A stretch of DNA of 16,261 bases from a virus (Duplodnaviria > Heunggongvirae > Uroviricota > Caudoviricetes): IMG/VR virus record IMGVR_UViG_2547132421_000009; one strand, written 5' to 3'. The notes under the pieces are model-generated. The model did no database searches. It was not told where the DNA came from and was given only the letters and a program-made list of their open reading frames with translations. A program made the translations under genes and the position numbers. This document shows, piece after piece, positions 1,643-13,755 of the stretch (its first letter is position 1; each line of letters begins with the position of its first letter).

Positions 1643-2905
1643 ATGAGCACTTCAGCACAAAACCAATCAATCGAAAATGTATCTATCCCTGACGTCCTGA
1701 ATGCCGGTATCCCGGCCATTATCCAGAACATCCGGGCCGCGCAACGCCGCGTTAGTTGTGATGACCTCACAGCGCGTTTTTTTGATAATGCGGTTCAGTC
1801 AGCGGAGATGCTTCACGCACAGCTTATTGATGTTTATAACGCAGAAGCTGATAGCCATAACTCCCTGGTAGATGCAGCTGAAAATATGCAGTTGGATCTC
1901 GGTCTGAAGGGTAAAGAAATTGAAGAGCTTCAGCTGCAAATTGAACATTTGAAACGCCAGCAACAGGACGCGATCGACGATGCGACGCATGACGCCAACC
2001 AGCGTGCTGATAATGCCGAACGTATAAGCATTGAGCTGGAAACAAAACTCAATGAAATGACCGCGATGGTTGAACTGCGGAACTCACAGATTTCAACGCT
2101 AAAATCTCAATATAAAGAGATCATGAAACTTGATCCTTTTAACCTTGAGAAACGCTATAACAAAGCTAAAAGCGAGCGACAGGAACTGCGTAAGCAGGTC
2201 GCCGATCTTAACCAACAGCTCAAAAAAACTATTAAAGATGCAAGCGAAGCGCGCGTGGCATTTGCTAATAAAAAAGCAGAGGTTACCGCGCTGGTTAATG
2301 AAAATGCTAAATTTGCGACGCTCAAGAAGGAAATGTATGGCATTACTGAGCGCCGTTTTCCTGCAAGCAAACTCCATCCGACGTTAGGGCAAATCTCATT
2401 CTTCCCGCGCCTCCTGGCTTATGGGATCTCATCGCCTAAAGAGTTCAATAACGAGCGTCCTTATATCGTTTCTAAGCTGGACTTTGCTTATCAGTTCTGC
2501 TGCGACATGGGCTATGCCATTGATATCCGAATCAACGAATGGTTGATGCCAAACTTCCAGCCGTTGGCAATTTTCCGCGAGTTCCAGCCGGAAGGTTGGG
2601 TAGAGTTCTTCCATGAATTGATCTGTAAAGAGATGGAAAGCCGCCGCCCGGAACTGGTCCGTCGAGTTGAGTGGGCGCAAGAGGTTATGTTGGCAGATGC
2701 AGAGCTGCCGTTCGAACCGGAATTTATTGATGATCTGGCAGCTAAAGGGCTGCATACCCTGTTTGATGTGGTTACCCGCCGTCATGAGCAGTTGGTTGTC
2801 GAATTGGGTTTAGAGGAAACAGCGGCAAGAAGACTTCTTGATGTTTGCTATGCACTTAGCGATGCATGGGAAAAAGTGAACGGCGGCACTATTTACGTTC
2901 GCTGA
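1643..2905 (+). CDS. hypothetical protein, 420 aa, N-terminal ~220 aa predicted coiled coil plus C-terminal globular domain
   Basis: Long ORF with heptad-like charged N-terminal half (EELQLQIEHLKRQQQ..., ELRKQVADLNQQLKK...) followed by a strong intrinsic terminator. No family recognised. Confidence 0.6.
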   Translation: MSTSAQNQSIENVSIPDVLNAGIPAIIQNIRAAQRRVSCDDLTARFFDNAVQSAEMLHAQLIDVYNAEADSHNSLVDAAENMQLDLGLKGKEIEELQLQIEHLKRQQQDAIDDATHDANQRADNAERISIELETKLNEMTAMVELRNSQISTLKSQYKEIMKLDPFNLEKRYNKAKSERQELRKQVADLNQQLKKTIKDASEARVAFANKKAEVTALVNENAKFATLKKEMYGITERRFPASKLHPTLGQISFFPRLLAYGISSPKEFNNERPYIVSKLDFAYQFCCDMGYAIDIRINEWLMPNFQPLAIFREFQPEGWVEFFHELICKEMESRRPELVRRVEWAQEVMLADAELPFEPEFIDDLAAKGLHTLFDVVTRRHEQLVVELGLEETAARRLLDVCYALSDAWEKVNGGTIYVR

Positions 2906-2927
2906 TAGTTACAGTGTCACTTTTAAT

Positions 2928-2958
2928 GCTGGTGGAGTGCGCCCACCAGCATTTTTTT
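2928..2958 (+). terminator. Rho-independent terminator (GCTGGTGG-agtgcgc-CCACCAGC followed by ATTTTTTT)
   Basis: 8-bp perfect stem, 7-nt loop and a T7 run, 23 bp after the stop of the 420-aa gene. Confidence 0.7.
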
Positions 2959-2977
2959 CGTCCAATGAGGAGGGCAT

Positions 2978-3484
2978 TTGAGTATTTTCAATAAACACGC
3001 ACACCAGGAACGTCCGTACATTGTCATAGTAGATATTGATGGAACGATATCGGAGGCAACGGAAGACAGGCTGCATTTACTTCCACCGCCTGGCAACGGT
3101 GCATTAACAGAGCACTGGAACGAGTTTAACCTTGCCTGTGACACTGATGCTTCCATCACTCCAGTTATTGATATGGTGCGCCAGTTGTCCAGCATTTACA
3201 CGCTCTGGTTTGTAACCGGGCGCTGTGAGATAGCCAGGGATAAAACACGAGCCTGGTTGCGTAAGCACGTAACAAATGGGGCAGAGCCTTTGCTATCTAT
3301 GCGTCCCGCCACCGATGACAGAAATGACGGTCCAGCAAAGATTGATCTCCTTAAGAAAATTGGTCTAAGCAAAATTGCGTTCGCGCTGGAAGATAAGATT
3401 GAAGTGGCGCGTGTTTTCAGGAGGCACGGCGTGCTTACGTTAATGGTCAGGGAGTATGAAAACGCGCTTCTCCATCAACAATAA
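2978..3484 (+). CDS. HAD-superfamily phosphatase-like protein (168 aa), TTG start
   Basis: GGAGG Shine-Dalgarno 4 nt before TTG. HAD-like motifs: motif I VDIDGT, motif II LWFVTGR, a conserved Lys (WLRKH) and an acidic motif ATDDRNDG. Confidence 0.55.
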   Translation: MSIFNKHAHQERPYIVIVDIDGTISEATEDRLHLLPPPGNGALTEHWNEFNLACDTDASITPVIDMVRQLSSIYTLWFVTGRCEIARDKTRAWLRKHVTNGAEPLLSMRPATDDRNDGPAKIDLLKKIGLSKIAFALEDKIEVARVFRRHGVLTLMVREYENALLHQQ

Positions 3485-4634: not shown

Positions 4635-5150
4635 ATGGCGTTAACACACCGCGAACTCTGTCAGATTGCGTACAAGTTCCTTAAGCGCAACGGGTTCAAG
4701 GTTTGTTTTCATGACCGCTTTATAGCTGTAACCAGTACCGGAGAACAGCCAGATGCTATGGGATTCAGAAATTCAGCATCATGCCTGATAGAGGCGAAGT
4801 GTTCTCGTGCTGACTTGTTGGCAGATAGAAAAAAGCGTTTTCGTAAAAATCCGTCTCTTGGAATGGGCGACTGGCGATTCTTTATTAGTGAGCCGGGAAT
4901 TATTTCAATTGAGGATTTACCACCTGGCTGGGGATTACTTCACGTTGTTAACGGAAGAGTACGGAAAGTACATGGGTGGCCCAAGGGTAATTGCTGTTGG
5001 GGTAATCCTGACGATAAGCCATTTACTGGAAATAAGCAGGTTGAATGCGATTACATGTTATCTGCATTAAGGCGCATGGAGTTGAGAGGGCACCTTAATG
5101 AAATATATGACGGTGTAATTGTTAATAAGAAAGAAGGAAACGCGGCATGA
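4635..5150 (+). CDS. putative PD-(D/E)xK-type nuclease-fold protein (171 aa)
   Basis: AAGGAG Shine-Dalgarno 7 nt upstream. Candidate catalytic motif ...GEQPD(39)AMGFRNSASCLIE(53)AK(55)... with spacing typical of restriction-endonuclease-like folds. Confidence 0.45.
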   Translation: MALTHRELCQIAYKFLKRNGFKVCFHDRFIAVTSTGEQPDAMGFRNSASCLIEAKCSRADLLADRKKRFRKNPSLGMGDWRFFISEPGIISIEDLPPGWGLLHVVNGRVRKVHGWPKGNCCWGNPDDKPFTGNKQVECDYMLSALRRMELRGHLNEIYDGVIVNKKEGNAA

Positions 5151-6028
5151 CCACTATTACCAAAGAGCGACTACTGACAATCAAGCAGTGGCGCGAAACA
5201 TACGGACCTGGTAGCAACGTTGTACTGCCAGCAGAAGAAGCGGAAGAACTGGCACGAATTGCTCTGGCATCACTGGAAGCAAAACCAATAGGTGCATTCC
5301 ACATTGCAGAACAGCAAGTTGACGGCACAAGTGACTACCTCAAGGATGGAGAATGGCCTATTGATAATGGAATTATTGAGGTCTACGCCGCTCCCCCCGT
5401 TCCAGTAGTACCGGAAGAAAAACCAATGCCTAACGCTCTAAGCATGCTTGAAAGAGAGATCACACAACTGATTGGTGATGCGCAGGAAGCCACTGTTACT
5501 GGCTATGAGTTAATCGCTGAAGCTTGGCGTTTGATGGATGGACAAGACCCTAAAACCAGCGATTGGCATAGCAAGGCTTCGAAGTATTTAAATTCCAATA
5601 TTGTAGAAAAAGTTGATGATGACCGTATTGATGCAATTAAGGCTGTTTTGCGTAGACTGGCTGGCAACTATCCGGATATTCCGGATAGTTCGGTGCCTAC
5701 GCCAGGAAAGGGCGTCACCGGTGAACGTATCCGCATTAAGCCGCATGTTTATCGCGAACTGGTTAACCGTCTCCACGATACAGCGATCAAGTGTGCTGGC
5801 ACCCAGCAATTACGAGAAAGAATTAGCCGTGTTTTGGGCGACGTTATTACGCCATATCATCATAAACAAGCCGAGAAAAGCGGTCTGGAAAGGTGTCATC
5901 TTGAGGCAGCATTAAACATTAAGCCGGGGCATACGCTTGGCATTATTGATGCACTGTTGGTTCATAAGATGGCCAGGGCTTTATTGTCGTTGGTGGACGC
6001 TGGTGATACAAGCGAGGGTGAAGTATGA
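5147..6028 (+). CDS. hypothetical protein (293 aa)
   Basis: Long ORF whose ATG overlaps the stop of the upstream gene (ATGA) and whose stop overlaps the next start; no family recognised. Confidence 0.6.
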   Translation: MTTITKERLLTIKQWRETYGPGSNVVLPAEEAEELARIALASLEAKPIGAFHIAEQQVDGTSDYLKDGEWPIDNGIIEVYAAPPVPVVPEEKPMPNALSMLEREITQLIGDAQEATVTGYELIAEAWRLMDGQDPKTSDWHSKASKYLNSNIVEKVDDDRIDAIKAVLRRLAGNYPDIPDSSVPTPGKGVTGERIRIKPHVYRELVNRLHDTAIKCAGTQQLRERISRVLGDVITPYHHKQAEKSGLERCHLEAALNIKPGHTLGIIDALLVHKMARALLSLVDAGDTSEGEV

Positions 6029-6387
6029 GAGTTGCAGATCACATCAAACACCTTGAAAGAATTATCGAAAACGGTGAACTCTTAAGAGATCAGATGAGAC
6101 GCACGGCAGAAGCCAGGGAGGCGATAATCCGCAGTCAGGCTGGTAAATTAAAGCAATTGTCAGAGATTAACACGCTATACAAGAACAGACGTAACCGGGC
6201 GGTGATGCGGCTTCAGAAAGCACGTAATGAAATTAAATTGGTGGAGGCAAAACTGAAAAAACAGATCCAGCGTTACGATCAGCAAGATGCTTTTTATGCC
6301 GCCATCAAGGCGGCTGCTAATGAAATAGGCATCTGGAAGTTGCTGGTGGAGAAAGCAAAGACGAAGTTAAATGCCAACGAAAGCTGA
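6025..6387 (+). CDS. hypothetical coiled-coil protein (120 aa)
   Basis: ATGA overlap with the upstream gene; GAGGGTG Shine-Dalgarno; K/R/E-rich heptad-like sequence. Confidence 0.55.
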   Translation: MRVADHIKHLERIIENGELLRDQMRRTAEAREAIIRSQAGKLKQLSEINTLYKNRRNRAVMRLQKARNEIKLVEAKLKKQIQRYDQQDAFYAAIKAAANEIGIWKLLVEKAKTKLNANES

Positions 6388-6444
6388 ACTACAGGTGCCC
6401 ACCAGCACATACAGAAAATGATTGTTTCCACATCAAGGAGATTT

Positions 6445-6467
6445 TAATGTTTCACTGAAACATTAAG
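6445..6467. repeat. 23-bp perfect palindrome TTAATGTTTCA-C-TGAAACATTAA
   Basis: Read directly from the sequence: 11-bp arms around a single centre base, in the intergenic region after the 5147-6387 gene block. Confidence 0.8.
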
Positions 6468-6600
6468 TAAGCCAGTGCATAATTCCATTTTTTACTGACC
6501 TTAAAAGCAAAATCAAAACGATGATGAGGATAATAGCCAGAATCTGGCTAATAATAGGCGCATCTAAAAATGCACTCAGGAACTGAAAAAAAGCGTTCAT
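6463..6600 (-). CDS. small hydrophobic protein, 45 aa (MNAFFQFLSAFLDAPIISQILAIILIIVLILLLRSVKNGIMHWLT)
   Basis: Minus-strand ORF from ATG at 6600..6598 to TAA at 6465..6463; AAGGA 9 nt upstream; one long predicted transmembrane helix. Its 3' end overlaps the 23-bp palindrome. Confidence 0.3.
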   Translation of the reverse strand: MNAFFQFLSAFLDAPIISQILAIILIIVLILLLRSVKNGIMHWLT

Positions 6601-7088
6601 TCAGGTGGTTCCTTGTCAAATGTAAAGGTGCACTTGCTCACGTTGACGTAGAAACCCAACCCCTATATAGTTGGATTCGGTGAATGAAAGTCGTTAACGT
6701 GAGCTTACGGCACATGTTTTCGGAAAAACATCAGGGAACGGCTAATTCCTTGATGCGGGTGGGGTCTGTAATGCAGACCCTATCTATTAACGTCATGATT
6801 GCATCTCAAATTTTCTCCTTATCTTCAATTAATCTACATTCATTTCATCTGTTAGCCACCACAATATGTAGAAAATGGCCCTCTTGCAAGTGCATAACTT
6901 TGTGGATAACTCAGGAAGGAAAAAGTGGCTTTCGCGCACCTTCGGTCAGACAAGGTGTCCGGGAAAGTCAACGCAAAGAAAAAAATTGTTAAAAATAACG
7001 TTTGTTGGAATTGTATATTTTTATCCCCTTCAAACATCTTTTTTTAGAGACAGAAAAACATATCGTAACAACATATATACAGTATTAA

Positions 7089-7319
7089 GAGGCGAGTATT
7101 ATCCTGCGGTGGGAATTCTGGGCGCTGTTAGATTCGACTTTCTCAGCAGGATTACATCGTCAACTTGCGACGTTGCCGTATGACTTTCGTGTAATAGGTG
7201 ACAATGATGCGGCTAGTGAGTTACTTGTGAAGTTTTTCGGAAAAGGTTTTGTGGCCTCGGATCTTGATGAGCTACAGCAACATGAAGTGTCTAATTTGAT
7301 TTTTAGCCATAGCCAATAA
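7089..7319 (+). CDS. candidate protein-coding region (76 codons) lacking an ATG/GTG/TTG start near its 5' end
   Basis: Open frame ...LRWEFWALLDSTFSAGLHRQLATLPYDFRVIGDNDAASELLVKFFGKGFVASDLDELQQHEVSNLIFSHSQ*; strong AAGAGG Shine-Dalgarno (7087-7092) 5 nt before ATT 7098; followed by a terminator-like hairpin at 7336-7357. Confidence 0.3.
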   Translation, partial: EASIILRWEFWALLDSTFSAGLHRQLATLPYDFRVIGDNDAASELLVKFFGKGFVASDLDELQQHEVSNLIFSHSQ

Positions 7320-13659: not shown

Positions 13660-13702
13660 TGATTTTTGTGCGCAGCTGGACGTAAACTCCTCTTCGGACC
13701 TG

Positions 13703-13736
13703 ATAACTTCGTATAGCATACATTATACGAAGTTAT
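13703..13736. other. loxP site-specific recombination site (34 bp)
   Basis: Exact ATAACTTCGTATA-GCATACAT-TATACGAAGTTAT: two 13-bp inverted repeats around the 8-bp asymmetric spacer, 437 bp upstream of cre as in P1. Confidence 0.97.
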
Positions 13737-13755
13737 CTTAAGGGTTATTGAACAT

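Follow-up and report, generated by a model that had tools for sequence, protein, structure and literature searches.

A perfect palindrome at the stop codon of a small minus-strand open reading frame in a P1/P7-like phage-plasmid, and its tentative reading as the image of a 3' mRNA hairpin

Results

The locus

The DNA analysed here (hereafter the window) is the whole 16,261-nucleotide stretch of IMG/VR record IMGVR_UViG_2547132421_000009. It is a P1/P7-like phage-plasmid sequence carrying loxP, cre and c1. Its identity is fixed by two known P1/P7 features: a 14-8-14 inverted repeat containing loxP, beside which lie open reading frames (ORFs) of the size of cre (343 aa) and c1 (283 aa), and a set of C1-operator-like sequences (ATTGCTCTAATAA) that form an inverted pair at 1343-1355 and 1396-1408, upstream of shtA/pmgR-pmgS. 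The region that concerns us most, 5900-7000, shares 99.9% identity with phage P7 and about 96% with P1, and matches 378 plasmid records, nearly all of them non-mobilizable and from Escherichia and Salmonella. The features needed at the outset are the following.

13702-13737: 14-8-14 inverted repeat containing loxP (GATAACTTCGTATA / TATACGAAGTTATC), upstream of cre
6025-6387, plus strand: homologue of pmgV (Upf90.8 of P7), assigned from the P1/P7 annotations and a match to PHROG 4403 (E = 6e-78)
6444-6466, no strand assigned: perfect 11+1+11 palindrome, TTAATGTTTCA-C-TGAAACATTAA, read from the sequence
6463-6600, minus strand: hydrophobic ORF of 45 codons (MNAFFQFLSAFLDAPIISQILAIILIIVLILLLRSVKNGIMHWLT), from the ORF list and its conservation

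The pmgV homologue is the final gene of a C1-controlled plus-strand operon, named pmgT-pmgU-pmgV in P1 and upf86.8 to upf90.8 in P7, and is convergent with the 45-codon minus-strand ORF. Beyond this operon the P1/P7 annotation places upfM/N/O, hot, lxr, humD and phd-doc. The annotated genes of the region from upfM/N/O to phd-doc are dispensable for lytic growth (PMC10695390). In the papers that a literature search returned for pmgV or upfM, these genes are merely listed as non-essential or variable, and a preprint on the P1vir transcriptome does not mention the locus.

The palindrome and its expectation by chance

The palindrome is perfectly symmetric, as the original prediction had it. That prediction set it at 6445-6467, 58 bp past the 6025-6387 gene; the true span lies one base further left, and 56 nt separate it from the stop codon of the pmgV homologue. 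The overlap claimed with the 3' end of the minus-strand hydrophobic ORF is real, since the palindrome covers the stop codon (6463-6465) together with the third position of the last sense codon. The lack of a clean U-tract on either strand is likewise borne out (plus-strand tail GTAAGCCAGTGC, minus-strand tail AAATCTCCTTGA).

The statement that such palindromes are rare by chance stands in part. Comparable palindromes (perfect, arms of 11 bp or more, spacer no longer than 4) turned up in 4% of 300 shuffled versions of the 16-kb window made with a first-order Markov model, so that the one at 6444-6466 is unlikely but not extreme; nor is it unique in the window or in P7. The 100 kb of P7 hold seven perfect palindromes of this size, about 25-fold over shuffles, and most of these are functional-looking hairpins of the G+C-rich, terminator type. 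A second one in the window, AACTATCCGGA-TAT-TCCGGATAGTT (11+3+11, positions 5666-5690), sits within a 293-aa ORF (5147-6028) and recurs in P7 at 90464-90488. The left arm of the palindrome at 6444-6466 also takes part in a plus-strand mini-ORF of three codons (AAGGAG-N6-ATG TTT CAC TGA, 6434-6458), which we dismissed as likely fortuitous, its ATG being missing in the divergent lineage described below.

A small minus-strand ORF

The 45-codon ORF is unannotated in the P1 and P7 GenBank records, and in some plasmids PGAP labels it a hypothetical protein (WP_000123562.1). Its product has a mean hydropathy of 1.56, and the ORF shows a pN/pS of about 0.5. In a lineage of 78% identity it is open, exactly 45 codons long, and differs by conservative hydrophobic replacements. 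No significant family match was obtained against Pfam, NCBIfam or PHROGs, and among 1.84 billion representative proteins no relatives were found outside the two lineages. A word-indexed search, an exhaustive HMMER search (with the window's own small-ORF sequence alone as the query) and tblastn against plasmids returned just these two lineages and truncated variants of the small ORF. Whatever likeness a "DAPII" segment of its sequence may bear to the Ldr/Fst peptides lacks statistical support.

In place of this ORF, the P1 and P7 records annotate plus-strand ORFs in the interval corresponding to 6570-6992 of the window (upfM/upfN/upfO in P1, Upf91.3/91.4 in P7). A 17-nt indel near 6824 in the divergent lineage breaks the plus-strand upf ORFs there. 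Judged from sequence preservation, the reference annotation of 6570-6992 is probably wrong, the plus-strand ORFs being unpreserved and the minus-strand ORF preserved.

Natural variants and a divergent lineage

P1 and P7 both carry the perfect form of the palindrome. A deletion form, TTAATGTTTCACTGAACATTAA, lacks one A from the A-run of the right arm; it accounts for 20 of 57 loci from reference, plasmid and IMG/VR sequences, 7 of 15 from metagenomes, and about half of the P1-like plasmids of E. coli. Altogether the element occurs in 192 of 5,426 complete E. coli genomes, in single copy and almost always on a P1-like plasmid.

Only one deeply divergent lineage was found, at about 78% identity (for example CP057418; locus L003, 1-2990). 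Its homology to the window begins at about 6397, and upstream a type I restriction-modification system (hsdM and hsdS, minus strand) substitutes for pmgT-pmgU-pmgV. The end of homology between the P7-type and divergent sequences marks a module boundary at about 6395-6400, just past a hairpin at 6389-6414. The palindrome is degenerate in this lineage: the sequence reads TTAATATCTCA(G/T)CGCGACATTAA, with 6 of 23 positions changed and the inner TTTCA/TGAAA motif lost (TCTCA/CGCGA). Its identity to the P7-type palindrome, 17/23, is not above that of the flanking ORF and is far below that of the neighbouring leader. Degeneration in all close relatives, which the original prediction had named as evidence against itself, is seen only in part: the palindrome is perfect in P1 and P7, bears a 1-nt deletion in about half of the relatives, and is degenerate in the divergent lineage.

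We found no third lineage in IMG/VR (pattern search), in metagenomes (back-translated peptide), in plasmids (divergent query) or in E. coli genomes, and an 18-mer of the conserved block gave only chance matches among genome contigs, in unrelated phyla. One plasmid, NZ_CP145648.1 (locus L004), carries an IS1A insertion (2233-3001, at about 6485-6493 of the window) with the target duplication CCATTTTT. It sits in the last codons of the small ORF, giving an altered C-terminus; about 25 nt from it the palindrome, here of the deletion form, is undamaged.

Folding of the palindrome as RNA

Transcribed from either strand, the palindrome is predicted to fold into a stem of 10 bp capped by a loop of 3 nt. 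With short flanks the perfect form is predicted at -9.6 kcal/mol on the plus strand and -7.8 kcal/mol on the minus strand; without flanks the hairpin has -6.9 kcal/mol, to be compared with -12 to -20 kcal/mol for the terminator-like palindromes of P7. The form with the 1-nt deletion still folds (-7.4 and -4.7 kcal/mol). In a modelled minus-strand transcript of 471 nt, pairing probabilities are 0.97-0.997 for all but the outermost of the ten stem pairs, for which the value is 0.79.

The divergent lineage separates the two strands. Its minus-strand RNA retains an 8-bp stem (UUAAUGUC/GAUAUUAA, -6.2 kcal/mol) by way of one compensatory change, U:A to C:G, and the replacement of one G·C pair by G·U. 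The plus-strand RNA has an A·C mismatch there instead, and no hairpin is predicted (-1.9 kcal/mol). The hairpin that the original prediction had offered as an alternative to a protein site survives, with a foldable stem kept in the divergent lineage on minus-strand RNA only. Consensus folding with RNAalifold gave -11.8 kcal/mol with a nil covariation penalty for the minus strand and -7.0 kcal/mol with a penalty of +1.5 for the plus strand, and explicit pair counts gave 93.9% and 87.8% paired cells, respectively. These covariation statistics are weak because there are only two independent deep lineages: 44 of 500 shuffles reached the observed score, and the strand asymmetry hangs on one G·U pair.

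A second hairpin lies 30-50 nt further along the minus strand.

6389-6414, minus strand: G+C-richer hairpin (CUGUA-U-GUGCU-GGUG-GGCAC-C-UGUAG), found by folding, in the putative 3' untranslated region

By our reading of the alignment, the divergent lineage preserves the inner stem of this hairpin by means of G·U pairs that are available on the minus strand only, a preference whose direction agrees with the minus-strand fold of the palindrome.

The original prediction had also held that the palindrome is not a simple terminator, and the folds support it on this point. The site does lie where a terminator might, just past stop codons (overlapping that of the minus-strand ORF and 56 nt after that of pmgV). 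Only 2 of its 11 pairs are G·C, its predicted stability is about -7 to -10 kcal/mol, and a U-tract is missing, none of which fits a canonical intrinsic terminator. We rejected a Rho-independent terminator of the canonical kind since the stem is not G+C-rich, a consensus scan makes no call, and the tails (GUAAGCCAGUGC on the plus strand, AAAUCUCCUUGA on the minus strand) hold no U-tract; this last point makes true intrinsic termination doubtful on either strand.

An nrdA-like promoter, a conserved putative leader and a candidate antisense RNA

Upstream of the small ORF, in its own direction of reading, lie further elements.

6861-6909, minus strand: nrdA-like promoter, from the annotation of M95666 and similarity to the region upstream of E. 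coli nrdA
6901-6909, minus strand: DnaA box TTATCCACA, annotated in GenBank M95666 (complement strand)
6884-6889, minus strand: putative -35 hexamer TTGCAA, from alignment reading
6861-6866, minus strand: putative -10 hexamer TATTGT, from alignment reading, at a spacing of 17 nt
6601-6854, minus strand: putative leader of the small-ORF mRNA, 254 nt, from the alignment and a fold z-score of -3.15
6643-6792, plus strand: candidate antisense small RNA with its promoter, from a promoter scan and folding

The label "nrdA-like promoter" was given by the depositors of M95666. Over 65 bp (6871-6935), the window matches the stretch immediately before nrdA in the E. coli chromosome at 97-100% identity; this segment runs leftward as nrdA does there, overlaps the annotated ypaB, and takes in the DnaA boxes as well as the -35 hexamer. 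To judge from this similarity, P1/P7 has captured a host promoter fragment, which appears to drive the small minus-strand gene. The hexamer positions, read from the alignment, predict a minus-strand start near 6854, and from the nrdA-like promoter we infer a minus-strand transcript that reaches the palindrome. A plausible minus-strand unit would accordingly run from the promoter through a leader of 254 nt and the 45-codon ORF to the palindrome hairpin and then the second hairpin.

The stretch 6601-6860 is non-coding and 95-100% identical across lineages, the ORF alongside reaching only about 78%. Within it lie an inverted repeat (6636-6648 / 6692-6704) and, on the plus strand, a sigma-70-like promoter, TTGACG-17-TATAGT (6643-6671), which has a scan score of 10/12 and is kept in the divergent-lineage locus L003. 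A plus-strand RNA of roughly 115 nt (6676-6792) would fold at -43.5 kcal/mol (z = -5.15) and terminate in the hairpin GGGTCTG-TAATG-CAGACCC (6762-6780) plus TATCTATT; the hairpin shows a compensatory change in L003, T6765:A6777 to C:G. In layout this suggests a small RNA antisense to the leader of a gene for a small hydrophobic peptide. Searches of Rfam, with the whole window at the gathering threshold and with 6200-7100 at a permissive one, gave chance-level matches only.

Nine nucleotides of the leader, CAUCAAGGA (6754-6746), are complementary to UCCUUGAUG (6439-6431), immediately 3' of the palindrome. This inverted repeat (6431-6439 / 6746-6754; CATCAAGGA / TCCTTGATG) is paired in the minimum free energy (MFE) fold and partly kept in the divergent lineage; by a rough estimate, about 0.4 such complements are expected by chance in an RNA of this size. 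The leader also holds, on the minus strand at 6731-6805, an AAGGAG followed by a three-codon mini-ORF (ATG CAA TCA TGA), the stop of which overlaps the ATG of a 21-codon ORF. Both starts are kept in the divergent lineage and the peptides are not, the first having become ATG-TAA and the second having undergone mostly non-synonymous changes.

The palindrome as a protein-binding or recombination site

The original prediction offered, as one of two readings, a site for a dimeric DNA-binding protein (operator, partition or resolution site) and proposed a search for further copies and half-sites. None was found above chance in the 100 kb of P7: there are no extra exact copies of the 11-mer half-site, and near-matches number 5 with at most one mismatch (2.95 expected) and 43 with at most two (40.7 expected). 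The single copy, a symmetry broken in about half of the relatives and degeneracy in the divergent lineage all speak against such a site, which fails the tests that the original prediction had itself proposed for copies and conservation. A 1-nt deletion that shifts the half-site spacing in about half of the relatives is, moreover, unlike what is seen in a selected dimeric operator. To our knowledge, none of the consensus sites of CRP, Cra, LexA, Fur, TyrR, ArgR, OmpR and IHF convincingly fits the palindrome.

The inner part, GTTTCA-C-TGAAAC, is reminiscent of two parS box A heptamers set in inverted orientation. GTTTCAC on the plus strand is identical to box A4 of P7, and both it and GTTTCAG on the minus strand fit (A/G)TTTCA(C/A/G). 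Heptamers of this type are common in P7 (64 and 67 per strand), inverted TTTCA..TGAAA pairs occur there six times, mostly within genes, and no box B (TTCCCA in P7, TCGCCA in P1) lies within 60 nt of the palindrome.

Two predicted sigma-70 promoters of the P1 record overlie the palindrome: the -10 of P2upfM falls in the left arm, and the -35 of P1upfM at the centre. P1upfM has a scan score of 9/12. Both are weak, and neither is conserved in the divergent lineage, for which latter reason we rejected them as operator-controlled promoters of an antisense RNA. A site-specific recombination site of the lox/res/cer type was also considered and set aside: the 1-nt spacer does not correspond to an asymmetric crossover spacer of 6-8 bp, the palindrome is unlike the 14-8-14 loxP repeat, and the annotated cix sites of P7 lie elsewhere.

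Discussion

A proposed 3' hairpin of the small-ORF mRNA

The original prediction is confirmed in part as to what it observed and supported in part as to what it made of it: a hairpin, as minus-strand RNA, is supported, and a protein site is not. The reading that we prefer, to which we assign a probability of about 0.45, is that what appears in the DNA as a palindrome is an RNA stem-loop, namely the 3' hairpin of the small-ORF mRNA. The stem-loop would start at the stop codon of an overlooked minus-strand gene encoding a 45-aa hydrophobic protein, the UAA lying in the 5' arm, and would be the first structured element of the 3' untranslated region. What it does there we infer from its placement on the minus-strand RNA: it could be a barrier to 3'-to-5' exonucleases, a point of pausing or processing, or a weak non-canonical terminator, a barrier, a processing point or a weak pause being the likelier roles. 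In P1 and P7, where the stem is all Watson-Crick and pmgV is convergent, the same hairpin can also form on transcripts reading through from pmgV. In the lineage with the hsd context nothing converges, and the minus-strand fold alone is kept, as would be expected on the hairpin model.

Several points argue for a minus-strand stem-loop. The stem begins at the UAA of an ORF whose length is identical across a nucleotide divergence of 22%; the minus-strand RNA of the divergent lineage is still predicted to fold; the deletion form folds; a credible leftward nrdA-like promoter lies upstream; the stem pairs are probable in the modelled transcript; and P7 shows no pattern of multiple copies or half-sites. 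Against it, the stem is A+U-rich and weak compared with the terminators of P7, and neutral decay over a divergence of 22% might leave as many pairs as are in fact retained, 8-9 of 11.

This last point leads to the chief alternative, which we hold to be unlikely and nonetheless take seriously: that the palindrome is incidental, with no selected function, an imperfect repeat having been made perfect in the ancestor of P1 and P7, for instance by a template switch, and now decaying neutrally. The perfection of quasipalindromes by template switching is an established mutational mechanism. About half of the P1-like plasmids have lost perfect symmetry through the 1-nt deletion in the A-run, the pairs kept by the divergent lineage are near the chance remainder, local identity (17/23) is no better than in the flanking ORF, and 4% of shuffled windows yield a comparable palindrome. 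It is the frequency of the deletion variant and the unremarkable local conservation that keep the neutral reading in play. What tells against it is that the dyad begins exactly at the stop codon in both lineages, that one two-sided compensatory and one wobble-compatible change preserve the minus-strand fold, and that palindromes of this kind are enriched about 25-fold in P7 over shuffles.

Rather improbable, in our judgement, is a more specific role for the hairpin as part of a module like those of type I toxin-antitoxin systems, with the ORF as a membrane toxin, the plus-strand RNA 6676-6792 as its antisense regulator, and the hairpin serving in fold-back or stability control in the manner of the 3' end of hok mRNA. 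The ingredients are suggestive: a small hydrophobic ORF, a structured leader conserved at 95-100%, a promoter-like antisense site scoring 10/12, a hairpin with a compensatory change, and the 9-nt complement between leader and 3' flank, paired in the MFE fold and preserved in part by the divergent lineage. Set against these are the chance expectation of about 0.4 for that complement, the lack of similarity to known type I toxins or RNA families, and, of little weight, the tolerance of an ORF-truncating IS1 in one plasmid. A literature search returned no paper tying P1-like elements to type I toxin-antitoxin systems.

The weakest contender, and a very improbable one, is an operator for some regulator or for the plasmid ParB, to which the perfect dyad of operator-like length, the box A4 heptamer in an inverted layout recalling A2-A3, and the overlying P2upfM and P1upfM predictions lend some appeal, against which stand copies and half-sites at chance level in 100 kb, a spacing of 1 rather than 3 nt with no box B within 60 nt, a half-site spacing altered by deletion in about half of the relatives and a motif lost in the divergent lineage, the six mostly intragenic TTTCA..TGAAA pairs of P7, and the weakness and lack of conservation of those promoters.

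Significance

Taken alone, the palindrome carries little weight, its likeliest identity being that of an ordinary 3' mRNA hairpin, with no sign of a control site. More interesting is the conserved structured leader beside the small ORF, which is better conserved than the gene itself and follows what appears to be a captured promoter of the nrdA type driving that gene. P1 and P7, classic and heavily used phages, are probably mis-annotated here, with three unconserved plus-strand "upf" ORFs recorded and a conserved minus-strand gene for a small membrane protein passed over.

It is tempting to go further and to view the whole interval from about 6390 to 6930 as a module made of a small membrane protein and an antisense RNA, with the palindrome as its 3' hairpin. 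Such a module would comprise an nrdA-type promoter with a DnaA box, an ultra-conserved structured leader, the 45-aa peptide and a convergent RNA of about 115 nt; in its action it would resemble a type I toxin-antitoxin system or a stress-linked membrane effector, and upfM, upfN and upfO would be artefacts of annotation. As a whole this proposal, built on patterns in the sequence, strikes us as doubtful. If confirmed, it would place a small regulatory or toxin-like module beside hot, humD and phd-doc, in a known hot spot of variation among P1-like resistance plasmids.

Comparison with known systems

Four classes of known elements invite comparison. With the P1/P7 parS arrangement A2-A3 (ATTTCA-GGC-TGAAAT) the palindrome shares the inverted orientation and, through GTTTCAC, the heptamer of P7 box A4; it differs in having a spacing of 1 nt instead of 3, in the lack of a box B or an annotated IHF site nearby, and in not being conserved. 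The locus as a whole recalls those of type I toxin-antitoxin systems such as hok/sok, ldr/rdl and par of pAD1 in combining a small hydrophobic ORF with a putative leader that is long and structured, a candidate antisense promoter and a predicted 3' stem-loop, all recognized here from the sequence; unlike these systems, it shows no homology to known families of toxins or antisense RNAs.

The palindrome is closer in layout to bidirectional intrinsic terminators such as that between mat and res of P7 (AAAAGGAGGTTTTCACCTCCTTTT): it lies between convergent genes, past a stop codon, and is a Watson-Crick dyad able to fold on both transcripts. In contrast to terminators of the mat/res type, however, it is A+U-rich and weaker, and has neither the flanking A-tract and T-tract nor a U-tract. 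These differences do not separate it from the protective stem-loops found at the 3' ends of mRNAs, in which a stable hairpin follows the stop codon, the fold is kept rather than the sequence, and a U-tract is not needed. Stem-loops of this class act as barriers to exonucleases after Rho-dependent termination or processing, and it is a function of this kind that the palindrome may serve at the end of the small-ORF mRNA.
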